In this document: positions 1,093-26,119 of the stretch, one piece after another | Layout: each line of letters begins with the position of its first letter | Position numbering within the stretch: the stretch's first letter is position 1 | From: Fimicolochytrium jonesii | Lineage: Eukaryota | Assembly (NCBI RefSeq): GCF_025526975.1 | Contig: NW_026515687.1 | Coordinates: forward strand, 124,001 to 188,000 | DNA length: 64,000 nucleotides | Direction of reading: 5' to 3' | Program-made: the position numbers and the translations under genes | Notes under the pieces: model-generated | The model's input: the letters and a program-made list of their open reading frames with translations, nothing else | Databases searched by the model: none | Told to the model about the DNA's origin: nothing

Positions 1093-2189
1093 CTACAAAA
1101 GCCCATACGCCAAGGGTCCTTGACGATGGATTTCGGCCAAACCGTCCCAGAGGGGGCCGCCAAACGGGTTTGGGGACCGGGGGCTACCGTGCTCGTCAAG
1201 CAAGTCCGTGGGAAAGTAGAAGGTCAGCCGTTTGGAGCATGAGCTGTATTCGGGAAGCTTTTGGCCCTCATCCAAGCAAAAGAGGACGTAGATTCGCGTC
1301 GGGAATACGTGAGAACCCGTGATGGCATGGACGAAATTGTCCAGCGTCTGGTCCTTTGGAACTTCTTTCAATGCACATCGGGAGAGCTGCGCGGCGGTGT
1401 TGACGAGATCCCGGCTCATTGCAGATTTGCACGTGAATTCCAGATGGCGGGAAATCTCATCATACATGAGCAGTACAGGCGCGAATAACGACATGACGAC
1501 TCCGCATGGGACCGAATGGAGGATTCCGACAAATTCCACGCCCATCCCCTTTACCATGTCGGCCATCGGGCCATCCCTACTTGCGTACAGCACGTGGTAT
1601 TCGATCGAACGCGAATGGCGGTCGGCGTTTTCCCAGAACGTCCAGAGATCATTCCAGCTGCGGCGAAGCGGCTGCGGACGGTGTGCATCATTCACGTAAG
1701 TTGGAACATGAATAGGCACACCCAGTCGCTCAACGCATGCCCTGAGTCTACCGACGGAAGAACGGACTCGGTAAACCGTTCACTGAGGGCGGTCAAGAAC
1801 ACTGCAACGTCGAGTACATACCTGGCCTCCCATGTTTCACGCTTTGTTTTGCGGTCGATCCCCTTGTCACGCATACCCAACAGTACCTCGCCGAGTTCCT
1901 TGTCGAAGAGCTTCACCGTTTCCGCGGTGATCTGCCAATAATGGGGGAGGTGGATACCCGAGCAATTGTGGCTGTGGTGGAGGTAGTTTACAAAAGCAGG
2001 ATGGAGCGTTGTCGGAACGATTCGAGCCCAGCGATAGGCACATACAATGACCCGCCCAAGCATCTCGTACATGCCGTCCAAGCGATACGCCAAGTTGTGA
2101 GGCGATGCCACCGGTAGCAGCATATCTTCGCCTTCAAACCACGGCGTATCCTCCTTGCCGAAGTAGTGATCGATCAGGGCATGAAACTT
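1093..2189 (-). pseudogene. HECT-domain-like protein, 5'-truncated at the telomeric tract; one intron (1672-1721)
   Basis: Joining ORFs 1692..2123 and 1093..1719 through a GT..CAG intron keeps frame (SDW|PLRRSW). Motifs resemble HECT ligases: FHALIDHYF..PWFEG..LLP, YEMLGRVIVCAY..LHPAFVNYL, FVHAITGSHVFP..LPEYSSCSKRL (candidate catalytic Cys). The upstream frame runs into the telomeric repeat with no further ATG. Confidence 0.55.
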
Positions 2190-2239
2190 GGGGTTAGGGT
2201 TAGGATTAGGGTTAGGGTTAGGATTAGGGTTAGGGTTAC
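2188..2239 (+). repeat. Short interstitial telomeric repeat tract
   Basis: TTGGGG TTAGGG TTAGGA TTAGGG TTAGGG TTAGGA TTAGGG TTAGGG TTAC. TTAGGG is the canonical telomere repeat of many fungi. Confidence 0.92.
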
Positions 2240-2479
2240 AAGACCCCCTGGGTTGGGTTTTATTATTGGGTTGCCTGGAACCCTAGGGACTTAGAAATTT
2301 TCGAGTTTCTTGGTTTTGGGCAGTGTTCTACAGTTCAGATTCCAGGTTCCAAGGGGTAGGGTGCCGGGGGTGTGAGCTTTCTAGACGCCGACGAACTCTA
2401 TGGTAGTATACGTGGTGATGATGGAAAATTTATCTGTCATCATATATGTAAACGGAGCGGATAGTCACAACCAGCAATC

Positions 2480-3385
2480 ATGCGCGCGCTTGTCATCTCT
2501 TTGATCATCTTCGTGATCATTTTACTCATTGGTATCTTTGGTTGGACACAGGGTTGGTTCAAGGGCATCTTCAAGTCCGCTGCCAAGGCAGGATCAGGAT
2601 CAGGATCAGTATCTGGCACAGGATCAGGTACCAACACGCCAACACAGTGTCTCAAAACAGATACATTCCCCGTCACCGCCGTCGGCAAAACGGGCCAAGG
2701 AAGCTGCCCAGCCCCCCAGACTGGCACCGTCACAGCCATGTGTCAAGCGGATGGAACCTTCGGCCCAACCGATACATCTGGATGCGTCACCCCGAACACC
2801 ATCTCGGCTGGTGGCTATTGTGTTAACAATGGTGTCAACGTGTGGGACGAATGGCAATCAACGACGGGCAGGGCAAAATGCAACACTACAAACAACATGT
2901 GGACCGTGGAGTGCCCTGCTGGTACGGTGAAGACGAGCCTGTTCACCATGAGCAACACAGGTAGGGGCGGGGAAGGTGCGGTGTGTAGCCCAAAGGTTCA
3001 GGATGCCACAGCATGTCTGGGCGGGAAGCCAGGGATTTGGGACGAGCAAGCTCTGCCTCCGTCTGGAAAAGCCGCCTGCGACAAGACGGCCAACGTATAC
3101 GTCGGCGGCTGTCCTGCAGGAACGGAGAAGCATACCCTATTCAAGATGACGTATGGCGGTTACGGCGGGGAGGCTGCTCTTTGCGACGCTGGTACCGCCG
3201 CAGGTGGGGTGTGTTTGTATGGGGTACCTAACAGATGGGACGGTATCACAGAAACGTATGGAAACGCGAGCTGCGATAAAACTACAAATATCTATAGCGT
3301 AACCTGCCCTCCCGGGACTACCAAGATTCCAATCTACAACATGACGAATTCGAACCGTGGCGGTGAAGGGGCTATATGTGTCTGA
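2480..3385 (+). CDS. Type II membrane-anchored Cys-rich protein with a HormR/HRM-like domain and three ~60-aa 4-Cys repeats
   Basis: N-terminal hydrophobic helix, then a GS linker. FPVTAVGKTGQGSCP..GTVTAMCQADGTFGPTDTSGC resembles the hormone-receptor domain. Three repeats follow: C..WD..G.A.C..T.N.Y/W...CP.GT.K..L/I(F/Y).M....GGE.A.C. Confidence 0.8.
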   Translation: MRALVISLIIFVIILLIGIFGWTQGWFKGIFKSAAKAGSGSGSVSGTGSGTNTPTQCLKTDTFPVTAVGKTGQGSCPAPQTGTVTAMCQADGTFGPTDTSGCVTPNTISAGGYCVNNGVNVWDEWQSTTGRAKCNTTNNMWTVECPAGTVKTSLFTMSNTGRGGEGAVCSPKVQDATACLGGKPGIWDEQALPPSGKAACDKTANVYVGGCPAGTEKHTLFKMTYGGYGGEAALCDAGTAAGGVCLYGVPNRWDGITETYGNASCDKTTNIYSVTCPPGTTKIPIYNMTNSNRGGEGAICV

Positions 3386-3542
3386 AGTCCATGAATAATA
3401 GTCATGTGACCTGCCGCGTTTCAGTATGAAATTTTTTTTGGGAATCCAAAAAAAGATTTGCACCAAACGCGTATCCTCTCTTTACCAAAAAGGCGCGAGG
3501 ACACAAAGCGCGCCCCTTATACGCTCGCGAACACTACGAGTA

Positions 3543-4283
3543 ATGGCCGACCTAGAATCGCAGTACATACGAGACCGATACCTCGACAATGATCCAATGG
3601 ACCTGATAACTGAAGACGAATGCCGAGAGATCTGCTCATATATCCATCACACGCATGATGCGGACGTCGTGAGAGCCCTTCTCCGTCGTCACCCGGATCT
3701 ATGTCGGTGGCCAGAGTTCCCCTACTGCTCTCCGGTCCACTGCTGCATCCTGAACCTTCTCGTTCAAGCTGGGCTCGATCACCAGCATGCCATGACGTCC
3801 CTTAACAGAGCCGTCGTTTGGGAAGATTGGAGGGCTCTTGCTAGCCTCGCCAAGGTGAAACGCTTACCAACGACAACACTATTCGGAATCTTCCTCTGGG
3901 AAAGGGCGCTGCGGCATATTTCTCAGGACACCTTGAACTTCATGGTTACGCTTGACGATCCGTCCCCTTTCCTGCCGTCGTGTAGCTATGTGATACAGCA
4001 GAAGGCGATCACTTACGAAAACGCTGTCTTCGTTAAACCGTGGTCTGCAGAGGAAGCTGCGCTTGATATAGGAGACGTACCACTTAGTGTAGAGGATGGA
4101 TGCCGCGATGTGGATGAGTCTGATACACCTTCTATGATCAGGAGCCTTATCCGCCTTTGTCCTGACATCCTTCATGATCTCAAGCTGACCCCGCGATATC
4201 GTAGACCGTCGGTCATAGAGACACTCTCTGCTCTAGGTTGTTCCGGGCTGACGTATGAGGGCCACATCTGTGTAGACTTGTAG
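3543..4283 (+). CDS. Hypothetical protein, possibly degenerate ankyrin-like helical repeats
   Basis: Intronless 246-codon ORF from ATG 3543 (MADLESQY..). HDADVVRALLRRHPD and CILNLLVQAGLD are weakly ankyrin-like. Confidence 0.55.
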   Translation: MADLESQYIRDRYLDNDPMDLITEDECREICSYIHHTHDADVVRALLRRHPDLCRWPEFPYCSPVHCCILNLLVQAGLDHQHAMTSLNRAVVWEDWRALASLAKVKRLPTTTLFGIFLWERALRHISQDTLNFMVTLDDPSPFLPSCSYVIQQKAITYENAVFVKPWSAEEAALDIGDVPLSVEDGCRDVDESDTPSMIRSLIRLCPDILHDLKLTPRYRRPSVIETLSALGCSGLTYEGHICVDL

Positions 4284-4377
4284 CGTTTGCCTCTAGGGGG
4301 AAGGCAAAGCAGATGTAGATGGTATATAATGCAGGCCCTTTGTGCTTCTTACGCCTTACACAATCCGATACCTAAAC

Positions 4378-5046
4378 ATGAAAGACGAGGATCCCCCAGC
4401 GTACAGTCTGGACCAGCTCAATACTCGTCCTGATGCTACCTCAACCCGATTGAGCTCAGATGAGCCGGAGACGGGCAACGCGAGAACTGATCTGAGCAGA
4501 GCGGCCGCAGCTGGGCGTAAACGTACCGCGTTGTTGTGCCTGCTGTTCGTTGCTATCGCGTGCTTTTCGGCGATTGCCCTTGTCATATCTTCTCGAGCGT
4601 TGAACGGAAGGGTAGACGACTATATTGCCGCCCAGCGATCCGCTTTGGAGCGGAGACTTGACACTGAGTATGACCATTGTGGTTGCCTCCTGCTTTCTTT
4701 AGGAGACTATGACACACCGGTCAACGTAAGCGTATCATGCAGTACGGCCGTACGAAGCACCGTAACAAGATATCGCGGCCAACCTATTCCCCGCACGGAC
4801 ATAGAACAATCATGCTATTGGCCAAAGAGAGTGGATGAGCTAGTCTACTTCGGTTCTCGCGCGTCATTCCTAGAGTACGAGGAAGATTGGAGATGGAGCC
4901 GTGCACATTCGCCGGACACCGGCTGGGGACTGATCAAGGAACCAGGGCTCAAGACGCTCTTTGCTATTGGGGTTATAGCAGCTGTGCTCAATCTCTTCAC
5001 ATTCTGTTGTGTTCTATGTAGCTTAGCTCATCAAACAACTGGTTAA
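4378..5046 (+). CDS. Hypothetical two-TM membrane protein with an N-terminal PPxY motif
   Basis: MKDEDPPAYS start, two hydrophobic stretches (ALLCLLFVAIACFSAIALVIS; TLFAIGVIAAVLNLFTFCCVLC) flanking a Cys-containing loop. Confidence 0.65.
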   Translation: MKDEDPPAYSLDQLNTRPDATSTRLSSDEPETGNARTDLSRAAAAGRKRTALLCLLFVAIACFSAIALVISSRALNGRVDDYIAAQRSALERRLDTEYDHCGCLLLSLGDYDTPVNVSVSCSTAVRSTVTRYRGQPIPRTDIEQSCYWPKRVDELVYFGSRASFLEYEEDWRWSRAHSPDTGWGLIKEPGLKTLFAIGVIAAVLNLFTFCCVLCSLAHQTTG

Positions 5047-5353
5047 ACGGTTACACACACGATGGTGGCGCTGCGAGGCTCAAGCCTGTGGATTAGCCCC
5101 GGGCGTTCATTTGTGCGCTCACAGCTGTACTCGCATGTGGGGCTAGCAGCCGCGGACCTCAACATTCGCGTTGCGATACGCAAATGTGCCAAGACATAGA
5201 AACCTCTACTGTCGCAACCGTTGTTGCTTCCTTCCTCAAGCAACCGTTGTCTTGGCACGTTTAGATAAGAAGAAGGCCCGAGACGTTCCCCGCCCCAAAG
5301 TGAAAGGAAACCCGCAACGCAACACCAACCTTTCATCAACCTACCGCAGCATC

Positions 5354-5869
5354 ATGCCTGAGAAGAAAACCCTGTGGCACATCGCCCCCGACCACGCTAA
5401 GAGTTCAATCTCGACTGGTGGTCTTCGCTCCGGAAAGAAGTAAGACGTGTAACTGTATGTATCAAACTGTCTTGCACGCTAATCATCGCCGATGTGCTGC
5501 AGGGGAATGTACGGTCCAGCCGTCTATGCCACCGACAGCGTCCAATCTTCTAGCCGCAAAGCTCTCTGTGGAAACAAGCGTGTCGCTGTCAAGATTGAGG
5601 CCGATATGGGCAAGATGGCTGTGAGCACACGTGCGGACCCTAAAGGCTATCATCGCAACGCCGGATACGATAGCCTCCACGCTCCCTCCGGAACGGACGT
5701 ACGCAATTCCGAGTACGCCATCTACAACACAAAGAAGATTACCTCCTGGTCTGTGCACGAGCCGAAGAAAAATGGCGGCGGCTACAAGAAGACCGAGTGG
5801 GGCGGTACCAAGTTGGTTCAAGGGCCGGACGGGCGTACATCTCAGTATAGTCACTGGCAAGCCAAGTAG
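5354..5869 (+). CDS. H-Y-E (PARP/Gig2-like) ADP-ribosyltransferase; exons 5354-5439 and 5503-5869
   Basis: The 63-nt intron 5440-5502 has a GTAAGA donor, GCTAAT branch site and CTGCAG acceptor. The spliced product MPEKKTLWH..SISTGGLRSGKKGMYGPAVYATDS..SRKA..GYDSLHAP..NSEYAIYN shows the H, Y and E catalytic positions. Confidence 0.75.
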
Positions 5870-5889
5870 TGTAGAATACCTACGGAAGC

Positions 5890-6553
5890 ATGGATACTTG
5901 TGCTCTACCATACTTGTGCTCTACATGTACTTTACGAGCCGAGCGTCATGGCAGCTTCAGATATAGTAAACATTGTTTTGATCCTACTCCCGAGATCTAC
6001 AGCATCCACCAGCTTTGACTCTTCTGCGTTGTGGGGTGAGATATTGTTTTCTCAACGCTCAAGAAAGGCATCAGGCGGCCCTTCAAAGCCCTTGATAGTT
6101 ACATGTCACGTGAGGCAACGATTGTCTTCAAGCCGCTTGGTGAGCACGATACTGCTCTGTTACGGGAGCTCGATGCCAAATCTGAGGTTGCCCTCTACAT
6201 TGATAAGCTACGAGCGCAGATAGGGAAATCCGCAAGACAGGACAAAGCCGCCTATCGTGTGACACTCTATTGAGAGCTGCCGTGCCATGACGGACAGACC
6301 GTGTTACGTAATCGGAGACTCATAGCAGAGAAGTTGGAGCGAATCACGGCTTCCCTAGCGGAGCAACCAATCAGCCTTGATAATCTGAAGTTGTATGGAA
6401 TAGTGGGAAAACAGTTCCTACTGTACTTATCCGACGTTGATCGGCGCAGTGCCCCTTTCTCGTCATTGCTCAGTATCAGGAGGACATCAACGCGGAACAA
6501 GCACAGTTCCTTAAAAGGGTCATACAGCGGCTGGCTTTCGAGAAAAGTGTGTA
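5890..6553 (+). pseudogene. Decayed ORF of unknown function
   Basis: One reading frame from ATG 5890 is interrupted by three TGA codons (6016, 6037, 6271). A probable frameshift near 6445 leads into ..PFLVIAQYQEDINAEQAQFLKRVIQRLAFEKSV*. There is a 16-bp tandem duplication at 5894-5924. Confidence 0.4.
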
Positions 6554-6603
6554 AAGGGGGTAACCTCCTCTCTCAGTTGCCTCCGTGGCGGTTCCGCAAC
6601 ATT

Positions 6604-7014
6604 ATGTTTCAACAGGACGTACTGCGACACGTCTTTACACTGACAGACACCGATACGCTACACATCGTGCGCTTATCATGTCGTCTTGTCAAAGATCTGA
6701 TAGCCAGTGTGATCAGAGCACGTTTGATCAGGCTCGCTTTGCGGCGATGGAAAAGGAAGCTAATGCAATGCGAAGGTACAGTGTTCAGCCCGGCTGATGT
6801 TGGAATCGTAGGATGGCCGTTTGAGAAGGACATGTACAAATCCTACTCCTTTGACGTCGATAAGTTGACCAAACCAACGGGAGCGCACGTGCCACGTTTC
6901 TGGAACGGTGGCCTCATTTTGAAGGAGTACTATATGACATACGCGCCTCCTTTCAAGGTGGACATGACGGATGGCGAGTTCATCGTTGGGGTGACTGAAA
7001 AGGGTCTACGATAG
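6604..7014 (+). CDS. Small protein with an N-terminal F-box-like motif
   Basis: MFQQDVLRHVFTLTDTDTLHIVRLSCRLVKDLI matches the F-box pattern (D/E)VLxxIFxxLDxxxLxxxRLxCR. Confidence 0.55.
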   Translation: MFQQDVLRHVFTLTDTDTLHIVRLSCRLVKDLIASVIRARLIRLALRRWKRKLMQCEGTVFSPADVGIVGWPFEKDMYKSYSFDVDKLTKPTGAHVPRFWNGGLILKEYYMTYAPPFKVDMTDGEFIVGVTEKGLR

Positions 7015-7213
7015 TATCAACGCCGGGGGACAGCTCTTCGTCACTTGCTCTCTCCTCAGAGATGCTTATATAGATCCTTTGGGTTTACTGCTCCTCGTCA
7101 AACTGCCGTGGATACTTTTGAAGGCCTTGTATAGAGGCTGCTTGTATGTACATTCACTTTCATAACTTTGAATAAGCAAAGCCAGTTCATGTGACATGCG
7201 TAAGCAAAGTAAG

Positions 7214-8073
7214 TTACTCCACTGCCATACGCTTCTTTGCGAGCTCAACGTATTTGGCGTTGATCTCAAACGCAAGAAATCTGCAGCCGGGAAGCCTAGA
7301 ACAAGCCACCATCTCTGTCCCTGCCCCTGCAAAGGGAATGAGGACATTCGTTTCTATGCCTTCCTCAGTATGCATAGCGCTCTTTACAAGACGCTCGGTC
7401 AGTTGCAATGGCTTCTGAGAAGGGTGGGCAACGCCTTCCGATTTGCCGCAAGCCCCGCTCAAAGCTGAGACTTTGATGACGTCACGTGGTAACGCACCGT
7501 CCTCATGGATATTGTAGGCGGTTGCGACATTCCGCGAGTTTATACGCCCAGTAGAATCAGCAGCTCGGACCCTGCCAGGGCTGTACTTTTTGTACTCCTC
7601 AGTATAGGCTTCTCGCACTAGATCACGGTTAAACCTTGACCCTGGAAAGCGACACAAAAGGATGCTTTCATGCGATCGCTGAAAGCTCTTTGCCTTTGGA
7701 TTTGTCTTGTTCGTATCGTGCCAAACAAGCCAGTCCACTTTCCACGTGATGGCTTTGTTACCATGTATCCGGGCGTAGATCAGAGCCAACGTGGTGGACA
7801 GACCATAGATGTAACATGTACCTGTCCTCTTGAGAACACGGTGGCATTGGAGGATCCAATCCTTGCACCAAGCGAGATACTCATCCTCTCGCCTCTTATC
7901 ACTATCGTCCCAAAGTCCTTCCCAAAGTTGTACGGCGGGTCACATATGATGAGATCAGCTGACTCGGCCTGAACCGAATGGAATGCCTTTACGCAATCAG
8001 TGTGATGGACTGTATTGTCATAGGCGTACTTGACTACTACAGGTAGAGATGCAGGTACAGGAGTCTCTGCCAT
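7214..8073 (-). pseudogene. Beta-class N6-adenine/N4-cytosine DNA methyltransferase with a 1-bp frameshift near 7908
   Basis: ADLIICDPPYNFGKDFG, then after a shift DSDK..EYLAWCKDWILQCHRVLKRTGTCYIYG..VWHDTNK..FQRSHESIL..HPSQKPLQLTERLV..VLIPFAGAGT..FEINAKYVELA. The catalytic DPPY precedes the FxGxG SAM motif, which is the beta order. Confidence 0.9.
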
Positions 8074-8089
8074 GTCTGATATCAGGTTC

Positions 8090-8734
8090 CTACTTTACCC
8101 TAATCCGCGCTGGGTTGTATACGTCAATAGGAGGATCCCTACTTTTTATATCAGTCTCAACGCGGACGCATATCTGCTGCTGAGTTCGTGTATCGTCTTC
8201 CCTCCTCGCCTCCGTGACAATGACTGATTGCCTTGCGAACCATCTGAGAACTCTCCATAGTTTCAACCCCACATAGGATGTGATCCCAACTACAAGAGGC
8301 CCGTTGATGAGGACGAATGTGATGGCAAATCCCTTGATCAAGCCGCTGCTCCACACGCATTCAAAGTGTTCATCCAAGGCCACCCCAAAGGAGGCCAGCT
8401 GAAAGACGAATGTAAAGGATGCCACCACGAGGAGGCCGAGTATGACAAACGCAGCAGCAAATTGAAGGGCAGGCCACTTTTCATACGGCGCAGAATTGAC
8501 CAACGCAATAGAGGCGAGTGCAGAAACAAATATGGTAAGGTCAGCGACTCCAGAGGCGAACGGGGCGCATTCTTGCGCAGTCTTGGCGCGGATATGTTGA
8601 GCAATCGACTTGCGGGCATGAAGTAAAGCGTAACCGGTAAGGCCAATAGAGAGGGCGAGACGTAGTGTAGCAACGATGAAAGGCCAGTTAGGTCTAATGA
8701 CTTGGGCTTTGAGAGGTTTGTATGGGGTAGCCAT
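8090..8734 (-). CDS. Hypothetical four-TM membrane protein
   Basis: Intronless ORF (MATPYKPL.., alternative ATG at 8806) with four hydrophobic segments. Confidence 0.6.
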   Translation of the reverse strand: MATPYKPLKAQVIRPNWPFIVATLRLALSIGLTGYALLHARKSIAQHIRAKTAQECAPFASGVADLTIFVSALASIALVNSAPYEKWPALQFAAAFVILGLLVVASFTFVFQLASFGVALDEHFECVWSSGLIKGFAITFVLINGPLVVGITSYVGLKLWRVLRWFARQSVIVTEARREDDTRTQQQICVRVETDIKSRDPPIDVYNPARIRVK

Positions 8735-8847
8735 TTTGTGTGGGATGTTGGCAAGTAGGTAACTGCTTCTGGCTCTGCGATCGAGACGTATGTATGCTAG
8801 CACCATATCGGCTCCGTATCACGTGATTGCGCTCAATTGCGCTGGCG

Positions 8848-8863
8848 AGTTTATCGATAAACT
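8848..8863. promoter_or_regulatory. Palindromic motif AGTTTATCGATAAACT (copy 1 of TTTATCGATAAA)
   Basis: Perfect 16-bp palindrome in the short gap upstream of the minus-strand 4-TM gene. The same core occurs at 9924 and 12016. Confidence 0.5.
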
Positions 8864-9855
8864 TACGCAAGGAAGAGTGGCTGCCTGGTAGTTATCCTGG
8901 CACGACACACTGAACAAAGAGTTATTGAGTCGGCACATCGGCGACAATGGGCGTGGCCGCAGTTTAGCGCCACATTTACTCGATCCGTCAAACATACTGG
9001 GCACATGCCTATGGTAGGGGCCTCCTCCGCCTCCTCGTTGATTGCCAAGAGGGCAGCGGCCACGTCACTATTCTGACCCGGGTCCCTGTTTCTGTCTGTC
9101 ATCGCCAGGTTATCCAGATCGGTCAAGAGATCTTCCACCGGGTATCGTCTGTGAGTGTATGAAGGAGGTTTCCTCCAAAGTTTTCCTTGAAACATGGTCA
9201 GCTGTATGGAGATACCTTGGGTGTGCACACCATAGTACACAATGCGATCAAGCTGGACGACAGCGGCTAGCTTGTCTCCTGGGCCTACTAGGTCACCTCT
9301 TGGATCTGTGACCTTTGAGGGTATGAAATCTTCAATGATGTCGCTGGTGTCTCCATCTCGCATAGCAAACTTGAAACAATCGTGTGCTTCCTGAGAGCCA
9401 GGGGGTTTGTAAGGTTGCAGGATGATACTGATTTCGGGAGGGTACTCCTCCAACTCGTTTCTTTTGAAGATGCTAGTGCCGTTGAGAAGCAGGTCGGGCC
9501 GCTGTGCAGACCTTCCTTGACTCCGGATGGTCCATGTAGGATAGGCCGCGTCAATAAGAACCTTGACGCGGCGCTCGAGATCCAATAGAAATCTATGTTC
9601 GCGACTCTGTAAGACAGTCTGGGCCCTCACTTTAATCTTACCCATGGTCCTCCAGTCGGTGGTACCGAATCGGCCACCAAGAGTAGTCAAAGAGTAAGCT
9701 GGTAAAGTAAGATCTTTCAAGACAAAGGTCAGCTTTACCGCGGAGGGTCCATAGAGGACATCGTGGATGCGGCAATTCTCGAGGGTGACAAGCCGACCCA
9801 GCTGGAGACTGCTGAGATCCACAGCATCGGGTTGAAGAACTCTTAGAGCGGGCAT
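8863..9855 (-). CDS. C-terminal C3HC4 RING-finger protein with an N-terminal region resembling NCLDV ssDNA-binding OB-fold proteins
   Basis: RING: CPVCLTDRVNVALNCGHAHCRRCADSITLCSVCRARITTRQPLF. The N-terminal VLQPDAVDLSSLQLG..YPPEISIIL..FKFAMRD..LVGPGDKLAAVVQLDRIVYY..GISIQLTMFQGKL recalls gp2.5-like giant-virus SSBs. The RING is certain and the SSB call is tentative. Confidence 0.75.
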   Translation of the reverse strand: MPALRVLQPDAVDLSSLQLGRLVTLENCRIHDVLYGPSAVKLTFVLKDLTLPAYSLTTLGGRFGTTDWRTMGKIKVRAQTVLQSREHRFLLDLERRVKVLIDAAYPTWTIRSQGRSAQRPDLLLNGTSIFKRNELEEYPPEISIILQPYKPPGSQEAHDCFKFAMRDGDTSDIIEDFIPSKVTDPRGDLVGPGDKLAAVVQLDRIVYYGVHTQGISIQLTMFQGKLWRKPPSYTHRRYPVEDLLTDLDNLAMTDRNRDPGQNSDVAAALLAINEEAEEAPTIGMCPVCLTDRVNVALNCGHAHCRRCADSITLCSVCRARITTRQPLFLA

Positions 9856-9923
9856 GATTACTCCCAAAGTAGTGATCCCGAGAAGTTTTCGCACCGCATC
9901 CTGGGATACTTATAGCGGCCTTG

Positions 9924-9935
9924 TTTATCGATAAA
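9924..9935. promoter_or_regulatory. TTTATCGATAAA palindrome (copy 2) between the divergent RING and ankyrin genes
   Basis: About 70 bp from the RING ATG (9855) and about 78 bp from the ankyrin ATG (10013). Confidence 0.5.
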
Positions 9936-10012
9936 AGCATCAAATAGATGTAGATGACGAATACGTTTTGGAAGCTGTCGCCACATCCCTTTGCTCACCA
10001 TCATACAACGAT

Positions 10013-10969
10013 ATGGCTTTCCCATTCCATCTGCTCTTAGCGCATTGCAAAGGAGAAGTCGTGGTGAATCTTCTCTGCATATCCAGTGTCTATAGAATGG
10101 TTACCCACGCCGACGTGCTAAGGGCCTACCCAACCGGTCAAGATATCGCCAAGTTGCCGAGGCCTCTATGGACAACGTACATCCGCCTCGGCATGGCAGA
10201 CATGCAGAACGCGATAGAGAAGGCAGCGGAACATGCTCATCTGGATGCGATGAAGCTTCTTCTCCGGCCTTGTCACGATGCAACTTACGCCACCCTTTTG
10301 AATAAAGTTGGTCCCCTTGAGTGCTTGGACGATGATGGTGAGATTGAAACCATTCTCGAGTCTCCGCTCGCACACGCTAGCCGCTTGGGTAATCTGGATA
10401 TGATCAAGCACCTCATATCCATTGGAGCCGACGTGAACAGTGACCCGTATGCATTCCGGGACGCATGCACTTATGATCACTTGAACGCTGTCGAGTTTTT
10501 TGTGCGCATCGGCGTCAATGATGACGCAAAGCGATCGGGATTCCTATTCGCTTGTTTTGAAGGACATCTGGACGTCATACAACATCTCGTAAACAAGGGC
10601 TGCCGGGTAGACGCCGAGTGCATTGGCTGGGCAGCACAACGCGGGAAGTTCAGCAAGAAGAATTCCCTTCAGATCATCAAGTATCTCGTTTCTTTAGGGG
10701 ATTGTTTAGCCTTTGATGACATCCTAACAGACGCCATAGAAAGTGAAGCCGATCTGGAGACGATCAAGTATCTAGTATCGCTTGGCGCACAAAAAGACGA
10801 GATGGGCCTTATTGCTGCATGCGCGATGGGTGATACTGAGAAAGCTCAATTCTTCGCACTGCGTATACGGAGGGCCGAGACGCTAGTGGAAGCTGCGAGG
10901 CTGGCGCGTTCTCAGAATTGTGATGATATACATGATTACTGCATGAAGGTAGCGCGCCTGTTTGCGTGA
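10013..10969 (+). CDS. Ankyrin-repeat protein (giant-virus style)
   Basis: Repeats AAEHAHLDAMKLLL, ASRLGNLDMIKHLISIGADV, ACTYDHLNAVEFFV, ACFEGHLDVIQHLVNKG, IIKYLVSLG, TIKYLVSLGA. Intronless. Confidence 0.88.
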   Translation: MAFPFHLLLAHCKGEVVVNLLCISSVYRMVTHADVLRAYPTGQDIAKLPRPLWTTYIRLGMADMQNAIEKAAEHAHLDAMKLLLRPCHDATYATLLNKVGPLECLDDDGEIETILESPLAHASRLGNLDMIKHLISIGADVNSDPYAFRDACTYDHLNAVEFFVRIGVNDDAKRSGFLFACFEGHLDVIQHLVNKGCRVDAECIGWAAQRGKFSKKNSLQIIKYLVSLGDCLAFDDILTDAIESEADLETIKYLVSLGAQKDEMGLIAACAMGDTEKAQFFALRIRRAETLVEAARLARSQNCDDIHDYCMKVARLFA

Positions 10970-10994
10970 GAAAGTATCCGATTCTTTTGTACCA

Positions 10995-12005
10995 ATGCTT
11001 CCACAGAACATGATTCTTTCCGGAACGCTACGAGACCGGCTACTGGGTTGTTTCATCGGCGGCATCGTTGGTGACTCCTTTGGTGCTGCATACGAGTTCA
11101 AAGAACGTGACAGCTATGAAGTGTCTCCCAACATGGAAACCACTGTATTCAATATGCCACCGGGTTCATTTACTGATGATTCGTCCATGATGCTATGTCT
11201 AGCTGCATCACTTATTGAAACGGGTACCTTTTCCCCTACAGATCAGATGGAAAGATATGCACGGTGGCGAAAAGAAGGTTACATGTCCTCAGACGAAAAG
11301 AAAGGATGTTTTGATATCGGGGTCACAACGAGCAGGGCGATCGCACGTTTCCTTTTCAACCAAGAGCTCCGCGAGCGGAAAAGAGAAGCCGCAGAAGCCC
11401 CACCTTTGACCGAGTATCATGGCCTGTCTGACGAGAATGATAGTGGTAACGGCGGGATCATGCGACTAGCGCCGGTACCCATCTTCTATCATAGGGACAT
11501 AGGAAGGGCCGGCTACTATTCTGCACTCTCCTCTAAAGTAACTCATGCGTCTCCAGAGTGCATCGAAGCAGCGGGTGTACTCGGCAAAATCATAGCAAGC
11601 CTTCTACAAGGAGTTTCAAAGGTACACGCTGTAGTAGAGCTACCTGCATCTCTCGTAAGCGGATTGACGTGTGAAAAGGTCATACACATCTGCCAAGGTA
11701 CATTTCTCCGGAAGCAGCGAGACGAAATCAAAACAAGTGGGTATGTCATCGACACGTTGGAAGCAGCGCTGTAGGCTTTCTCTGTGACAGATTTCTATGA
11801 GCAAGGAATGCTTCTTCTGGCCGGTATGGGCTGCGATGCGGACACCGTGTGCGCCGTATATGGCCAGATCGCAGGCGCCTATAATGGTTATGAGGCCATT
11901 CCGAAACGGTGGGTAAACGCGCTCCAGCGAATGTCACTGATAGCGGAGATTGCGACAAGATTGCTTGAAGTTACCGAAGTGATGTCTACGGCGTTGGGGC
12001 GGTGA
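10995..12005 (+). pseudogene. ADP-ribosylglycohydrolase (DraG/ARH family) with a single in-frame TAG at 11772-11774
   Basis: GDSFGAAYEF, FTDDSSMMLCLA, GCFDIGVTT, SGNGGIMRLAP, SKVTH, GYVIDTLEAAL*AF and DADTVCAVYGQIAGAYNG..IPKRW all lie in one frame. The stop replaces the Trp typical of LEAALW (TGG>TAG). Confidence 0.9.
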
Positions 12006-12015
12006 GCGGTTTGAG

Positions 12016-12027
12016 TTTATCGATAAA
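12016..12027. promoter_or_regulatory. TTTATCGATAAA palindrome (copy 3)
   Basis: Intergenic, about 90 bp upstream of ATG 12118. Confidence 0.5.
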
Positions 12028-12117
12028 GAGGGGGTGTATGCATACGTATAGCAATGTGTCGCGTCGCTTTGCAATCATCCTCGCACCTACTCACATCAAC
12101 AAGATCCCCTTGCAGCT

Positions 12118-12675
12118 ATGTCCGGCGATGAAAGCATCGAATGGAACATTCAGAGCATCGCTGCAGCCCGAGGGCGGTTGTTGGAAAGTACCGGACCAAC
12201 GCACATATTGTTTGCGAAACTCCTTTGGCGAACTGCGGAGATCAGTTTGATGAGATGCCAGCTTCGTTCCGGATGCATTCGTTGGACAAAGGCCGACGGG
12301 GGAGAAACAATCATGGCTATATCAGCACGTGCCCTGCAGCAAACTTACGAGAGGATTCGGACCGATGTGGGCATTGCAAAGGAAAACGACATGGAGTCGG
12401 AGGTGGTGTCTCAGGATAAGCAGGATGATACATACGACATCGAGAAGCAACTCTATTGCCTGACAGAGTTCCTGAACAGCCTCTTTGCAGGCGACTGTTT
12501 CGCATTGGTTGGCAAGACCTTTCTCGCTGACACCGTGGCAGAATGGTACAGCAAGTTGACCTTCATAGTCGCTACCATGGTGCGTTCCGTTATTGTGTAC
12601 CAAGTCCTAGAACTGGGCTTTCCCCGCAAAGCGGACGACCAGGAAAAGCTCGCGCGCAGAGCGATGTCCGAATAA
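12118..12675 (+). CDS. Hypothetical protein, 3' end truncated by retrotransposon pol sequence
   Basis: Intronless ORF. Its last codons (from ~12661) are the antisense of RT thumb sequence (FVQGYSDIA). Confidence 0.5.
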   Translation: MSGDESIEWNIQSIAAARGRLLESTGPTHILFAKLLWRTAEISLMRCQLRSGCIRWTKADGGETIMAISARALQQTYERIRTDVGIAKENDMESEVVSQDKQDDTYDIEKQLYCLTEFLNSLFAGDCFALVGKTFLADTVAEWYSKLTFIVATMVRSVIVYQVLELGFPRKADDQEKLARRAMSE

Positions 12676-14360
12676 CCTTGCACGAAGTCGAGGAAGTAGT
12701 TCGTGAACCCGAGAAAGCTTTGAACTCCTTTTGTTGACTTTGGAGTAGCCCAATCCTTAATAGCTTGGATTTTCGAGGGCGCGATGCAAACACCATGTCT
12801 TCACAATATGTCCACACCATTCGAGTTCTTCTTTAGCCCATATGCACTTTGAAGGCTTGATGAAAAGGGCGTGTTCTTCAAGTTTCTTCAGGATACAATC
12901 GACGTGTTCCCGATGATCGGCTAAGGTCTTGGAGAAAATGAAAATGTCGTCCAGGTAGGTAGCAAGGAAATCGTCGTAATCTTTATGGAAGATCTTATTC
13001 ATAGGACGTTGAAATGCAGCAGGTGCGTTGGTAAGTCTGAACGGCATGACCAAATACTCGAAATGTCCGAAGCGAGTTCGTATTGCCGTTTTTTCTCGAT
13101 CTTGTTTTCGTATAAGAGGACAATGGTATGCTTCTCGAATATCGATAAGCGTAAACCATTTACAACCTTGAATGCGATCCCTCATCTCACGGATATTGGG
13201 TAAAGGAGTGCAATCTTTCTTGGTGACAGCGTTGAGACCTCGGTAGTCCCAACAGATGCGTAATCCCCCATCTTTCTTTTTCGCAAAGACGACACTAGCT
13301 CCCCAGGGACTTGAGGAGTGTTGTATCCATCGTTTTTCGAGCATCGAACTGATTTGTTTCTTATGTTCAGCGAGTTCTTCTTTGTTCATGTGCCGAAGAG
13401 GTTGCCAAACGGGGTCAGCACCTTCAGTGAGTTCGATCTTGAACTTATCTTCTCGCGATCAGGGGGTAAACCTTTCGGTTCCTTGAAGAGCGTATTGACG
13501 TATTTATTTAGGATATCTTTAAGATGTCCTGGATTTCCTTTAAGCTCTTGAGGAGCATCCAGTATTTCGTTAAGAGCGAGGCGACAGACCGTGTCTTTTT
13601 CAAACTTGTTCCGTCGCCAAGCCTTATCGAATCGCTTAGAAGTCATTTCTGTGACTTGAGGATTGCAAAGGGCATTGGCTTGAGCGAATCAAGAAACATA
13701 ATGAGGTGCAGCTTGTAGAGGACGTGTATCCACAGGTTTAATGATCCGAACAGGTCGAACAGGTCTTTTATCGTAGACCGGATCTTGTTGTACATCGAAG
13801 TAAGGGTTGTTGTGTTTCGGGATATATTCGACATCTTCCCAGTTTCTTGAAGTTCTTTTGCATTTGATGGTGACAGACTGCGGTGCGTTTGGTATAGGGC
13901 CATGATTGGTCCAGCAAAGGATAGGTAAGGTACTCATCGAGAATTGTTCAGCGTAATTAAAGAAACGTCAAAAAGGCGTTCCAATAATAGCGTCGTAAGC
14001 CAGATTACTGACTAGCCAGGAGAGTTGTCCAACTAAGAAAAGCGACTGAGATTCAAGATCCCATAGATCTAACTTTTCCGAAACGACCGTGTTGAGAATC
14101 ATGTAGGATTCTTTGTCGGCCAGCCATATCTGCTTTGGTTCAATACCTTTCTTGGAAAATTTGTGCTTTTCGACGAATGTCTTGTCAAGAAATAACCCAG
14201 TTGCGCTGCTATCGAAAAGAACACGAGCAAACTTGTTTCCGATGCGACAATGAGAGACCCAGAGTCCAGCAGACAGTGGTTCGAAGGCAGGTTTGTCGGT
14301 AGGATCGTATGTTGTAGGCCGAGCAGAGCTACCGAGGGGCTCTATCGACCTTGGAAAAAA
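12661..14360 (-). pseudogene. pol (aspartic protease + reverse transcriptase), frameshifted
   Basis: RVLFDSSATGLFLD (DSG mutated to DSS), SSPWGASVVFAKKKDGGLRICWDYRGLN, VMPFRLTNAPAAFQR, YLDDIFIFS, KPSKC, VQSFLGFTNYF. Several frameshifts. Confidence 0.92.
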
Positions 14361-15679
14361 CTCAAAGATTGATTTGTAGTAGTATTCGTAGTATTCGCAG
14401 AGTTGACGGCGTCATCGAGAATTTCCGTAATGCGTGACCCAGCATCAACCTGCTTGGCTGAACCTTGTTGTTGATTAGGTTGGCGACTGCGCTGCGGAGT
14501 CTGAGCGCCACGACCGCGCTGTCGAAAACCACCGCGTCGGTTCTGGGTTTGCGAGCCTTGCTGTTGATTTTCAGGATTTGACCAGCATTCAACTCTCCAA
14601 TGTCCCATTTTGTTACAAAGGGGACAAGGAGTCGTTGGACGTTGACGAGGAACATGAGTAGTTTGCCATTGTCCACGTCGACGAAAGGGTTGTCGACACT
14701 GGTAGGGAACTTGACCTGCAGTGAGACGGCTCACTCCAGGGGGATAGTATGACGTACCGAGGGCATTGAGCCCAAAGGTCATATCATCTAAGTCTTGCTC
14801 GAATTCCGTAATTTGAGGATTGGTGTAAGGGGCGAATCGTCCGCCACAACCACCGCCACGACTACCTCGACCGCGGCTGGCTCCATGGCCTCCACAAGCA
14901 CTCGATGCCGAGGCAATTGGACGAGGCGTATTGGCTTGGTTGCCATCAGTGAACCCGTGAGCCACATGAGCACGACGAGCTGCAGTGATAGCTTGATCGA
15001 GAGTGATAGCGGTGTTGATATTGGTAGTGCCCGAGACTTCGAAGTTCGTCACGGCTTCAGCAAGATAATGACCGATTACCGTATTCTTGAGAAGACCGGC
15101 CTTGAAGTATCGAATCTGATTGATAAGGGGAATGGTGCCTTGAGTGTTATCGAGACGATGAGCGGCTTCAAGCTCATTATTGGTGTCCCGAAACTCCTTG
15201 ATATATTTTTCGAGAGAGTCACCAAGCTTAAGACCGGAGAGCTTGAGCTCAATAGTATTACGCAAGTTGCGAGGATAAAAGTGAGGGACAAGAGCCGTTT
15301 CGAAAGCTGTCCAACTTGCGGGAGCGCCAGAGGTGTAAGTCGTATTGTACCACTCAAGAGCAGTACCCTTGAGATAGGTAGTGAGCGTAGGGGCATACTC
15401 TGCCATAGTAAAGGGTATGGCGTTGGCAGCTCCAGTACCGTCTGATCCAGCTTGTACAGCCGGGACAGTAAGAGACTCGAGAAAGTTGTGGTGAGACGTA
15501 ACGAACTCTTCGATCTTTTTGGCAGCTTTGGCGCCATCGTATTCGACGAGCTTGTTCTTGCGAGCGTCCATAAGAAGTCTGAAACGTTCGGCTTGTTGGA
15601 CATCCTGCGTAACAGCACGCTCCCAAGTAGCGAAAGCAGCTGCGACAGCCGCAACGATAGCTTGAGTTTGTTGGTCCAT
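14342..15679 (-). CDS. Gag (capsid + CCHC zinc knuckle)
   Basis: YLKGTALEWY..SWTAFETALVPHF capsid motif, CPLCNKMGHWRVEC knuckle and RG-rich segments. Confidence 0.88.
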   Translation of the reverse strand: MDQQTQAIVAAVAAAFATWERAVTQDVQQAERFRLLMDARKNKLVEYDGAKAAKKIEEFVTSHHNFLESLTVPAVQAGSDGTGAANAIPFTMAEYAPTLTTYLKGTALEWYNTTYTSGAPASWTAFETALVPHFYPRNLRNTIELKLSGLKLGDSLEKYIKEFRDTNNELEAAHRLDNTQGTIPLINQIRYFKAGLLKNTVIGHYLAEAVTNFEVSGTTNINTAITLDQAITAARRAHVAHGFTDGNQANTPRPIASASSACGGHGASRGRGSRGGGCGGRFAPYTNPQITEFEQDLDDMTFGLNALGTSYYPPGVSRLTAGQVPYQCRQPFRRRGQWQTTHVPRQRPTTPCPLCNKMGHWRVECWSNPENQQQGSQTQNRRGGFRQRGRGAQTPQRSRQPNQQQGSAKQVDAGSRITEILDDAVNSANTTNTTTNQSLSFFQGR

Positions 15680-15760
15680 TCTTGCTTGTGAACGAGTGTA
15701 AGGGGGACGTCCGGTAGAGGGGCAACGTTGACGAGGAATGTCTTGGTGATGCTAGCGGTA

Positions 15761-15773
15761 GGTGGTGCTACCA
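15761..15773 (-). other. Primer-binding site, tRNA-iMet-like
   Basis: TGGTAGCACC immediately follows the LTR end ..TTACA and is close to the Ty1/Ty3 iMet PBS TGGTAGCGCC. Confidence 0.65.
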
Positions 15774-16276
15774 TGTAACGTCAGAGGAAACGTAGATGAT
15801 ATTGGGCTTTTCTGAGAGGGCTGAGAGCAGTGTATTGTAGTGAAGAAAAAAGTAAGAAGCTCTTCGCAGCGGCCGCTCGGCTGACAGCTTTATATATGCG
15901 CTGCCAGTGGGGCTTGCGTGGCTTTAGTGAGGCTTGGCGCCTTATGTAATGTATCACCGAGAGCTCGGGTGGCCAGCCCGGGTCTCGGATGAAGTAGAAG
16001 TAAAGAGATATAATATGAAATACAAGTGGAGATGAGATATCCCCGACACTGAGAGCAGTGTATTGTAGTGAAGAAAAAAGTAAGAAGCTCTTCGCAGCGC
16101 CCGCTTGACTGACAGCCTTATATATGGGCTCTCAGTGGGGCTTGCGTGGCTTCAGTGAGGCTGGGCGCCTTATGTAATGTATCACCGAGAACCCGGGTGG
16201 CCAGCCCGGGTCTTGGATCAAGTAGAAGTAAAGAGATATAATATGAAATACAAGTGAAGATGAGTTATCCCCGACA
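15774..16276 (-). repeat. 5' LTR (15774-16048) plus a tandem partial LTR copy (16049-16276)
   Basis: The minus strand starts TGTCGGGGAT and ends CGTTACA. The 228-bp block 15821-16048 is repeated at 16049-16276 with about 15 substitutions, and each copy has a TATATAA. Confidence 0.88.
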
Positions 16277-18573
16277 ACCTACGCCGACCCCAGTAACGAA
16301 TTCGGGTTGTCTACCTTTGATCACACTACGGCGCGCGCAACAGCAACAGGGACGTCTCCGATGCTGTCTGCGATGCTTAGTGACGGGTCGGGTAATGCTG
16401 ATAATGTTTATCAGCGGATCGAGACCCATTTTGGCACACTTGCACGTAAGTTACAAATGGTTCAGTTGCCTTTGTCCTCATGTAGCCGGCCACTAATGTG
16501 TGGTATTATAGAAACATGCCCCAAACGCCGCATGTACTTTACCTCCAGGGAGGATGTCGTCGCGTTTGTCAAAGAACGCTACAATCAGGCATTCATGAAG
16601 GAGTGTCACCAAACACGTTTTCGCGAGATATCGGCCTTCCATGAGGGATCCATACTTTGCGGCGCTGGCCAAAGCAAAAATGGATTAAGGTCAGCGAGAC
16701 ATGTGGGGAATGTATGCCCCTTACCTGGAATTCAAGTGGCGCAAAAAGGGGCAGAAGCTGTCTCTAGGTAAGGTGACCGGACCGTGTTCCCGCATGCATT
16801 GACACAGCGCACTCATCTATGTATTATAGACGACATTTTTGCTCCGGTTCTCCCAAATGACCCTCTCGCTATGCGGCCCGGGGCGCGGATCCACCAGTTT
16901 GTTGACAAGGCTGCATGGGCACAGAACCGGGACGGAGACCACCAGCCCACACCAACACCTGGCCCAACCCACACTACCACACCCAGCGCCATCTCAAACC
17001 CCAACATTGGCTTTGCTTTCGGCGGAGTTGACGACGGCGGCGGTGGAGTTGAAACCATGGTGGACAGCGGCGGTGGAGTTGAAATCATGGCGGACAGCGG
17101 CGGTGGCAGTGGAGTTGAAATCATGGCGGACAGCGGCGGTGGCGGTGGAGTTGAAATCATGGCAGACAGCGGCGGTGGAGTTGAAATCATGGCAGACAGC
17201 GGCAGTGGAGTCGAAACCATGGCAGACAGTGGCGGCGGTGGTGGCAGCGGCGGCGGTGGAGTTGAGGGAGTTGACAAGGACCAGGCGCGACAGATGATGA
17301 AGACTACCTATGATGAAAAGCGGCTGCTAGATTTCGTTGCGCAAATGGCAGAGACCATCAACACACTCCGCACCCAGACAGATGACTTGGCAGCTCAGCT
17401 CTCTTCGGCAGCTCAGCTCTCTTTGGCAGAGCCCAACATCGAACCAGTTGAACCCGTCGAACCCGTCGCAGCCGCCACTACTGAATCTCCTACGCACGGG
17501 CGCGTCAACAATGAAGAGCTAAACCCCGACCCCTCTGCAATGAATATAGACGTTGACGGTTGGTGGAACCGGCCGCCGGCAATGTGGAAAGGCGAGCCGT
17601 GGCCAAAGGTGGATGAAAAGCAAAAATATGCCGGTGGACCAGTGGGCTCTCGGTTGCGGCAGAAAGGAAGGAGAAGGAGACCTGAGGATACCGGCAGGGT
17701 CGTCGATCATCGAACCCGCTATCATTCGGCGGATTGTCAAAACCGATTGCTGGCTGAACGATCAAGCTGTCAACAGGTCCGTTCCCGCTTTCCCGTGCGA
17801 GTGTGTGTCATTGTTGTCACTCACTGATGCTTGTCTCTGGATATATAGGTGGTGCGCGTTGTTACAAGCCAGGTCATCACGGCGCCCAACCATTTATCCG
17901 CCACTGCTAGCCGTTGGATCCACTTGGCTCCAAAGTGTCAAAATGGCACGGACATCCAATGTCCCTATTCGGCTTGTTCCGGTAAGAAAAGTTACTTAAC
18001 CGTACCGTACTTAACTAAACTAACTTTCCTTTTTTGTTTTATGTTAAGCGGTCGATCAACGTTGCAGAGTACAACATACTGCTATTCCCATCAAACCCAG
18101 ATAATCTGCACTGGGTCCTGTTCCCAATACTTGTCGCGGTGCCGGCGCCCAAGTCCGCAAAACCCCTGGGCCCCCCTGGTTCGCCATTAACCAGACACGA
18201 AAACGTATTCCTCGTTTTATTTGACTCAAAGCCTCGCCCGAATGATGACGACTACGTTGATAAGATGGCCAATATCGGCTCCCTCTTGTGGGATTGGTAC
18301 ATTACGGCCACTGAAGCCCCGCTCAATCACACACCGACACCGACGGTTGATGCCCTCTTCACGCCTCGACAGACCGATGACCAGAACTGCGGTACATTTG
18401 TGTGCATGATGGCTGATGCCATTGCCCGTGGTGCGGTGGGTGAGGCCTCGGAATCATGGGCCGATACGCAGACCGCCGTCAATGCCCGCCATAATATCGC
18501 TCTGAGCATCGTTTTGGCGACGTTTCTTAATGATGGGGATGCTCATCAGTATATGAATGTGACGAAGTGCTAG
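16277..18573 (+). pseudogene. Multi-exon Ulp1/C48 SUMO-protease-like gene (transposon-associated type), 5' end abutting the LTR
   Basis: CWLNDQAVN (~17750), LHWVL, VLFDSK and PRQTDDQNCGTFVC give the H-D-Q-C C48 signature. GTAAG donors and frame breaks lie upstream. Confidence 0.7.
17020..17270 (+). repeat. Coding minisatellite, 27-33-bp units (GGAGTTGAAATCATGGCGGACAGCGGCGGT..)
   Basis: About 7 units encoding GGGVEIMADS repeats. Confidence 0.9.
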
Positions 18574-18737
18574 ATCTCTGGTGACTGTAGCCGTAGTCCC
18601 TTCAACAGCATCATTGTACAGCAGTAGTCAAAATGCCGTACAAACATCCGGCACAAAATGGAGGGGCTTGCCATTGACAGTGGAATGACAGGAGGGGGTG
18701 AGGAGGCCCACGCCACGCTCTGCGACTGCTTGCGCGA

Positions 18738-19085
18738 GTGACCTTGGGACGACAAACCCCCACAAACGGACATGGCGAACGTGTTATCGACGAACAAGCT
18801 CTTATTGTTCCAGCCACCGACAGGCATAACGCAAGCAATGCCGTAGAAACCTCCGCATCTTTCAACGCCGTCTGGACCGCCACCATGAATACCGACATCG
18901 GGGCCTCCAGCTTTCGCGCCGGAGGGGCCACCCACCTCGCGATACTCGGTTACGACACACTGTGGATCCAACGCTGGGGTCGCTGGTCTTCAGACGCGTT
19001 CGAACGATATATCCGCACACATCCTAGCGTTCACCTCGCGGTGCGGCAGAATTCCGCTCCTATTACCCGCCCTGTTGTATACTAG
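18738..19085 (+). pseudogene. Tyrosine recombinase C-terminal fragment (DIRS/Ngaro or Crypton type)
   Basis: SSFRAGGATHLAILG..IQRWGRWSSDAFERYIR corresponds to the (H)SxRxGGAT..GRWxSxAxxxY motif. The N-terminal part is degenerate. Confidence 0.8.
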
Positions 19086-19182
19086 ATCTATTTATCTGTG
19101 GCTCATCTCCGCCCATCTCTTCATGTATATTTGCCATTTGCTCAATACAATGCCAACCTGGCCATCTTTATCTTACATACGG

Positions 19183-19376
19183 GCACTCCCCGGCTTGACG
19201 TGCGGGGGCCAAATTTCTCCCCAAAATCCATTGATGGCTGACTAGTACAGCGTGGGGCGAAAATTGGTCCCCCGACGCGACGCACTTTCCGGTTTGACGT
19301 GCGGGGGCCGAATTTCTCCCCAAAATCCATTGATGGCTGACTAGTACAGCGTGGGGCGAAAATTGTTCCCCCGACG
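19183..19376. repeat. 99-bp two-copy tandem repeat
   Basis: gcact..ccgg.ttgacgtgcgggggcc.aatttctccccaaaatccattgatggctgactagtacagcgtggggcgaaaattg.tcccccgacg occurs at 19183 and 19282. Confidence 0.9.
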
Positions 19377-21273: not shown

Positions 21274-21731
21274 GGCGGAGATCTCTGTCTGCCTCTGGGT
21301 TTGGGGTGAGATTGCGGGTCTCTCCGTTGCAGTGGTCATCAGGAAGTGGAACGAGCCGCAAGCCAAAGTTCTAAAGATTTTTGGGTGCCTTTGGGGGCCC
21401 GCGGGGGGTTGGGACCCGACGGACGCGCTTGCGAGTGAGTAATGGAATGATATGGCAATTTGGCCAAGCCGCGAGGGATGGATGAGGCAAGGGCGCAGGA
21501 ACGCGTCAAAAGGCAAGCAACTGATGAGAGTGCGCTGCCTGTATTCCCCAGATTCCCCCTCCTGTCCGAGGCCGTTATGACGTTTGCGGAACCGCAATCT
21601 TATGGAGCCACGACGTTCTCCACTCTCCACACAGCCAATACTGTAAGACCGTCTCCGCACTCGTCAGCCGCTCCAGCGTACAGTACAGTACAGTTCTTCA
21701 AGCCTCCACATCCACATGGAGGGAGTAAGAG

Positions 21732-23795: not shown

Positions 23796-26119
<2,324 letters not shown>

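Follow-up and report, generated by a model that had tools for sequence, protein, structure and literature searches.

Short internal tracts of telomeric repeats have been described in fungi, in mammals and next to viral DNA, and these systems provide the closest points of reference for the locus presented here. In Pyricularia oryzae, the sections on telomere relics in Rahnama et al. 2021 (PMC8381367) report that telomeres eroded below about 10 units are repaired by DNA capture and thereby become internal, and that tracts with at least three units number about 10 per genome (PMC8381367). Mammalian break sites receive insertions of such tracts, about 46-81 nt long and seeded by 1-5 nt of homology, according to the corresponding part of Nergadze et al. 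2007 (PMC2246262). TTAGGG is given as the usual fungal telomere repeat outside yeasts in the relevant lines of PMC7857110, and our literature search gave no report on the telomere repeat of chytrids. On the viral side, the account of HHV-7 integration places arrays in both terminal repeats and gives the junction a repeat stretch of about 1.5 kb, with the virus terminal and telomere-capped (PMC13170970). Viral fragments in Acanthamoeba are described near canonical and degenerate telomeric repeats, without terminal repeats and invaded by host transposons, in the portion of PMC12210455 concerned with them. For fungi of the kind studied here, the cited part of PMC13533422 describes Mycodnaviridae of about 350 kb and reports a lone capsid gene in Fimicolochytrium jonesii. 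Finally, passages on phaeoviruses mention a recombinase and a telomere resolvase, and a mirusvirus is placed in a subtelomere between rDNA arrays (PMC13236599, PMC12606086, 10.1101/2023.06.15.545109). Our literature search found no report of telomere-repeat integration by fungal viruses or elements.

Here we analyse a telomere-type tract in the chytrid F. jonesii, in a stretch of 64 kb which we call the window. The tract stands between a truncated gene and a block of foreign-looking DNA:

1093..2189, minus strand: divergent HECT-like gene without its 5' part, recognized by Pfam, the ESM Atlas, alignments and gene model P0003.
2188..2238, plus strand: telomere-type tract of 51 nt, made of TTGGGG, five TTAGGG, two TTAGGA and a terminal TTA.
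2239..2425, no strand: G/T-skewed spacer between the tract and the first independent sign of the island.
2426..12660, no strand: virus-like island of about 11 genes, mostly without relatives, starting about 187 bp past the tract.
12660..16276, minus strand: Ty3/gypsy element cut in the RT thumb, which forms the right junction of the island.

We propose, with a probability of roughly 0.6, that the tract is the scar of host telomerase at a DNA break in this copy of the HECT-like gene; this value and the gradings of the other readings are judgements and were not computed. Of the two options raised in an earlier note on this DNA, it corresponds to the second, ligation at a telomerase-healed break, which turned out to be the best-fitting one. 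On this reading the tract would have no function in its present state.

Read in the TTAGGG register, the units start at 2188 (TTGGGG), at 2194, 2206, 2212, 2224 and 2230 (TTAGGG), at 2200 and 2218 (TTAGGA) and at 2236 (TTA), and TRF returned a period of 6 with 8.0 copies and a period of 18 with 2.7 copies, at 100%; both confirm the eight telomere-like units at the gene break that had been noticed from the letters. Matches to three consecutive units number seven in the window, all overlapping at this one site, against 0.02 expected and none in 100 shuffles, and the 64 kb hold no second telomere-type tract. The first four bases, TTGG at 2188-2191, stand in register with the TTAGGG repeats, and the C-rich strand carries an AATAAA some 20 nt ahead of the tract. 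The G-rich strand is directed from the HECT-like gene toward the island, so that the polarity left flank-(TTAGGG)n-island is as claimed earlier. The earlier note had also described TTAGGA at every third position; the spacing of three is there, between two units, and the third TTAGGA of an 18-bp series would sit at 2236, past the end of the tract. Two variants among eight units fall three apart in 18% of random placements. We infer that one G-to-A substitution and one 18-bp slip produced both TTAGGA units, and since these two events suffice for a periodicity of two units, the templated, element-encoded array previously preferred loses its main argument.

The gene on the left carries two predicted introns:

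1783..1821, minus strand: predicted GT-AG intron of 39 nt, in frame, from model P0003.
1672..1721, minus strand: predicted GT-AG intron of 50 nt, from model P0003, which resolves an apparent frameshift.

Because the model implies these two introns, host-type is a fair label for the gene. Its minus-strand frame KFHALIDHYF starts at 2189 and matches the Pfam HECT domain with E values of 0.02-0.026 for the frame and 0.02-0.07 for the gene, below the curated cut-off, whereas the ESM Atlas gave feature scores of 0.93 and structural TM scores of 0.51-0.66 to HECT clusters; structure prediction of P0003 yielded no usable fold (pLDDT 33). P0003, a protein named as F. jonesii's on a 573,532-bp contig, has a 91% identical paralogue, P0004 (KAI8827294.1), on another contig of 2,244,513 bp. 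Neither among 1.84 billion representatives (50% identity, any length) nor among 7,996 scored candidates of 107-518 aa was there another genuine relative; a further candidate, P0005, was rejected as a spurious repeat match. Both gene models begin at the same internal Met, a weak hint that P0004 is incomplete too. With two copies and no outside relatives, the HECT-like gene may be the cargo of a repeat. Downstream of it, at 430-860, a CAAACATTT core recurs in short repeats, and there is a tandem pair of 93 bp. These resemble the subterminal repeats of DNA transposons, for which reason the gene may be the cargo of one.

The position of the break relative to the HECT domain was deduced from alignments. 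Reference domains were fetched with the familiar HECT motif pattern, 26 of 92 loci were kept (by eye and phmmer), and the 14 long enough were aligned pairwise. In the four best-scoring of the 14 (best z 3.8), Lys 2189-2187 falls on the Glu of the D-x-G-G-x-x-R-E motif, and the remaining 10 had no sound register; no frame upstream of the tract restores the full motif. Since the best alignments set this Lys on the motif Glu, the tract appears to start where the conserved core motif of the gene, at its Arg-Glu position, should be. The description of a HECT-like frame cut at 2189 thus holds for the HECT-like part, which does start there, but the tract does not stop the frame: it continues through eight Asn-Pro units and then 15 codons to a TAG. 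The motif search also returned HECT-motif genes in prokaryote genome bins (L129, L145, L147, L157, L188, L189, L203 and others). Several are probably eukaryotic contamination, and those in Chlamydiota and Verrucomicrobia bins, which are long uninterrupted ORFs, may be real bacterial HECT-like proteins.

According to the scar reading, the HECT-like gene would have been interrupted at the Arg-Glu of the motif, the G-rich strand pointing away from the surviving part as a telomere seated on it would. Telomerase would have extended the broken 3' end from the TTGG seed, adding about seven repeats; because of the polarity of the tract the repeats must have capped the gene side, a condition needed by every model. 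Two continuations can be envisaged. In the first, to which we give somewhat less than an even chance, the new telomere eroded to fewer than 10 units and was repaired by capturing unrelated DNA, leaving a "telomere relic"; the captured DNA would be the spacer together with 10 kb from a virus-like element that had integrated earlier. In the second, which we consider doubtful, the end was rejoined to its own partner, the tract being a 44-nt insertion; the first codons of the spacer would then still belong to the HECT-like gene and the real island junction would lie between 2290 and 2425.

We prefer the scar because the start of the tract coincides with the missing HECT motif, in a gene with eukaryotic GT-AG introns. 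The length (51 nt, eight units) and the polarity match those of fungal relics and of mammalian break-site insertions. The other end of the island is a cut too, with no repeat common to both ends, which also supports a scar, and the relic variant may gain from the second copy of the left flank, since relic flanks often have one. Three observations weaken the reading: an Asn-Pro frame with a silent variant runs through the tract, the HECT match stays below the Pfam cut-off with most alignments out of register, and the G/T skew of the spacer differs from both the exons of the gene and the island.

The spacer deserves a closer description, and includes one candidate coding segment:

2240..2290, minus strand: 17 open codons ending Gly-Gly-Leu at the tract, a candidate continuation of the HECT-like gene in another frame.

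Over its 187 bp the spacer has a G+T content of 0.63 and eight GGG runs, confirming the G-run-rich sequence reported past the tract. Skew and G-runs of this kind occur in 2 of 1005 island windows, and the skew alone in 7% of 4282 host windows. No second copy was found in the 64 kb, no RNA family in Rfam and no protein family, its 41-codon plus-strand frame included, and its predicted fold is weaker than that of shuffles (z +1.02). A degenerate telomere array was considered and rejected (three one-mismatch hexamers, shuffle p 0.16). The tract had been placed exactly at the junction; on the gene side this is true, but the earliest independent sign of the island comes only at about 2426, and its ORFs begin at 2480. 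The spacer may either have been captured or, with lower probability, represent the remaining part of the HECT-like gene. For the latter, and for rejoining to the original partner, speaks the Gly-Gly-Leu, which ends one base from the tract on the minus strand: removing 44 nt of the tract would bring it two codons before Lys-Phe, as the HECT motif is spaced. A triplet so placed arises by chance at 1.3% of window positions and in 0.2% of spacer shuffles, in a test picked post hoc. The rejoining variant is weakened by the whole 14-residue HECT motif, which scores at background in the spacer (-19.8 versus 33-42 in true domains; p 0.13-0.30).

Beyond the spacer, the genes of the island take up 89% of 2480-12675 and leave 16-308 bp between them. 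They comprise a DNA methyltransferase with a frameshift, an ADP-ribosylglycohydrolase interrupted by an in-frame stop, genes of ankyrin, RING, PARP-like and F-box-like type, and orphans. The features needed below are:

2480..3385, plus strand: first island ORF (ORF1), 301 aa, with an N-terminal hydrophobic stretch and Cys-rich repeats.
5354-5869, plus strand: PARP-like gene (PHROGs E 6e-4).
8863-9855, minus strand: RING protein gene, whose 240-aa N-terminal part is common to one Logan protein.
8850, 9924 and 12016 (span 8850..12027), no strand: palindrome TTTATCGATAAA, 12 bp, three exact copies between island genes.

That the island is virus-like we infer from its architecture, since searches with Pfam, PHROGs and NCBIfam, which include no giant-virus profile library, gave no capsid, polymerase, integrase or reverse transcriptase in it. 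ORF1 has one relative among 2,911 candidates, P0002, which is 74% identical and lies on a 321,979-bp ENA contig, and the RING protein has one among 6,110 candidates, the Logan protein, at 32%. Structure prediction of the RING protein gave no usable fold (pLDDT 31); its N-terminal part may be a viral single-strand-binding fold. The PARP-like gene contains a 63-nt in-frame GT-AG intron candidate (5440-5502) with a stop and a branch-like word, of spliceosomal type in otherwise intronless island DNA. Within the window the palindrome TTTATCGATAAA occurs only in the island (0.12 copies expected, 0 of 100 shuffles) and is possibly a promoter or terminator signal of the parent element; a palindrome scan returned chance single matches. 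Tetranucleotide composition separates island from host weakly.

Only one sequencing run, the soil metagenome X1, matches the window, and no RNA run is listed. Its contigs fall on 13 of 16 bins between 2002 and 12673, the leftmost starting near 2426, and the eight pieces listed for the island measure 210-390 bp and are about 88-99% alike. On the host genes at 21001-41000 there are 12 records, the eight listed being 33-38 bp long. The X1 contigs leave 641-2425 and most of 12700-20000 bare and 2184-2243 was skipped as repeat, so that these gaps were not counted as evidence. Viral contigs contained no relatives of the ADP-ribosylglycohydrolase, ORF1 or ankyrin genes and gave a RING-domain match alone, on one giant-virus bin. 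No ORF1 relative was found in metagenome contigs, where a bacterial match to the island gene 3543-4280 was set aside as chance; PDB sequence searches gave no match and phage records none. The X1 matches and the relative on the 322-kb contig suggest a living large element of these chytrids.

At its right end, the island runs into the gypsy element, which provides the last codons and the stop of the island ORF 12118-12675. This element keeps tandem 228-bp repeats at its 5' end (15821-16276, two copies, 93%) and has lost its 3' half. From 16277 to 19760 there follow a protease of Ulp1-like type (Pfam E 4e-7), an ORF with Gly-rich repeats and 99-bp tandem repeats, and a fragment near 18850-19030 may resemble the C-terminus of a tyrosine recombinase; together they look like a nest of further mobile-element remains. 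Host genes occupy 21-64 kb (at least 43 kb); they are intron-bearing and eukaryotic, and include caleosin, protein kinases, an XPG-family nuclease and Argonaute. No terminal repeat and no repeat common to both island ends was found in the window. Both ends of the island are cuts, and the fragment is in decay.

The best surviving alternative, which we regard as unlikely, is that a mobile element brought its own telomeric repeats and that its terminus is what we see as tract and spacer. Either the parent virus of the island entered a telomere or a break in herpesvirus-like fashion, which seems to us highly improbable, or a truncated host retroelement of the telomere-targeting MoTeR/Coprina type came first and its broken end captured the island later, which we hold to be improbable. 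The polarity is that of HHV-6/7 junctions, as the integration sections of PMC13170970 depict them, and of MoTeR relics, the spacer is G-rich on the same strand as the tract, unlike ordinary island DNA, the AATAAA lies shortly before the tract on the C-rich strand, and the island has a close relative elsewhere than in this genome. The herpesvirus-type polarity argument of the earlier note is correct, but it does not separate the options. Its suggestion of element-encoded termini finds little in the window: neither a second tract nor a terminal repeat was found in island and spacer, nor any gene for an integrase, capsid or reverse transcriptase, and beyond the island come host genes and no telomere. 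The tract has 51 bp against the about 1.5 kb of HHV-7 junctions in the cited description, and Mycodnaviridae, as far as they are described, carry inverted repeats of 9-34 kb and also encode an integrase. Nevertheless, the original right end of the island is lost, and its parent element may differ from the fragment in terminal arrays.

When viral contigs were scanned for five TTAGGR units, at least 126 loci came up, 79 of those listed having long flanks. None of the 126 listed array-bearing loci encodes a relative of the island or of the HECT-like gene, and neither viral nor prokaryote contigs contain the compound array in its exact form. Among the listed long-flank loci, Asn-Pro frames of at least 150 codons occur in six of seven mixed arrays versus 13 of 52 pure TTAGGG arrays (p 0.003); since mixed viral arrays are thus mostly Asn-Pro coding, the TTAGGA variant is no marker of a viral terminus. 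In 11 hand-picked viral loci with long or repeated arrays, TTAGGA was once among the commonest in-register variants. The boldest form of the element reading, a long shot in our view, is that the island is the left end of a chytrid giant virus of about 320 kb, present in soil today, which enters telomeres or healed breaks via telomeric termini. If this were true, a herpesvirus strategy would have been found independently in a fungal virus, and telomere-repeat integration would extend outside herpesviruses.

A reading less probable than the element terminus, and quite unlikely, takes the tract for a plain microsatellite belonging to the HECT-like gene, as an Asn-Pro linker or as a short intron, the island having broken the gene within 2283-2425. 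The intron would read:

2187..2239, minus strand: tract as a candidate 53-nt intron, with GT at 2239 and AAG at 2189-2187, both weak signals.

The coding version stays alive because the tract sits in an open Asn-Pro frame (15 codons upstream, 16 in the tract, 165 downstream) in which the TTAGGA variant is silent, as are 4 of 18 single changes; by the 150-codon criterion the tract belongs to the coding class, to which the mixed viral arrays mostly belong. The intron version profits from the 53-nt distance between a GT and an AG, close to the lengths of the gene's other predicted introns, and from CTAAC branch-like words inside. AAG acceptors are rare in fungi, which we counted against it. Its donor GTAACC is not enriched among the GT hexamers of the host region (rank 203 of 256), and the 50-nt intron has a donor that is not enriched either (rank 243); the output of an intron finder, applied to obtain splice statistics of the host, had too much noise to be of use. 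Either version would leave the HECT domain without its conserved Arg-Glu or without the whole motif, and the search of 50% representatives of any length and of the 107-518 aa candidates showed no longer, intact paralogue of the gene.

An assembler joining a real chromosome end to another contig via telomeric repeats is very improbable: foreign-looking DNA lies on both sides of the tract, in a repeat-rich 21-kb stretch, but the tract is just 51 bp with internal variants, spannable by any read, and contigs of 573,532 and 2,244,513 bp suggest a long-read assembly.

Returning to the scar, we can now compare the locus with the known systems, within what the cited portions of these reports describe. 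With HHV-6, HHV-7 and MDV it shares the polarity host-(TTAGGG)n-foreign DNA as the only common feature (PMC13170970); unlike theirs, the tract is about 30 times shorter, the island is cut at both ends, and no terminal direct repeats, second array, distal telomere or herpesvirus gene were found at it. As in Mycodnaviridae and giant EVEs, the island, in a zoosporic fungus, is densely packed with a mosaic of genes, some orphan, some of bacterial and some of eukaryotic type, unlike the host DNA. It differs from the Mycodnaviridae of the cited account (PMC13533422) as a fragment without hallmark gene, 9-34 kb inverted repeats or integrase. MoTeR/Coprina relics, as reported, leave a short 3' end by a telomeric vestige, repeated at other telomeres, and their parent encodes a reverse transcriptase; the spacer is single-copy in the window with no RT or Rfam match. 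The Acanthamoeba viral fragments can be compared as well: here too the island adjoins telomeric repeats, has no terminal repeats and is met by a host transposon, and a scar agrees with the idea that regions with unstable telomeres are where viral fragments come to rest.

The nearest counterparts are the repaired breaks. With three mismatches to TTAGGG in eight units, the tract falls within the criterion used for short interstitial telomeric sequences (at least four units, with fewer mismatches than units), and compared with the insertions of Nergadze et al., as excerpted, flank continuity is hinted at here by three codons only. Unlike the Pyricularia relics described in the sections cited, the tract lies in a chytrid and inside a gene, the captured DNA is virus-like, and the chromosomal position is known from the window alone. 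As a scar it would add another telomeric-repeat tract at a repaired break, here in a chytrid beside virus-like DNA, with little new mechanism. Finally, it resembles those relics, to the extent of that account, in a vestige below about 10 units (eight here), in the polarity interior-(TTAGGG)n-captured DNA, possibly in a duplicated flank, for which the second HECT-like copy is a candidate, and in transposon-rich surroundings.
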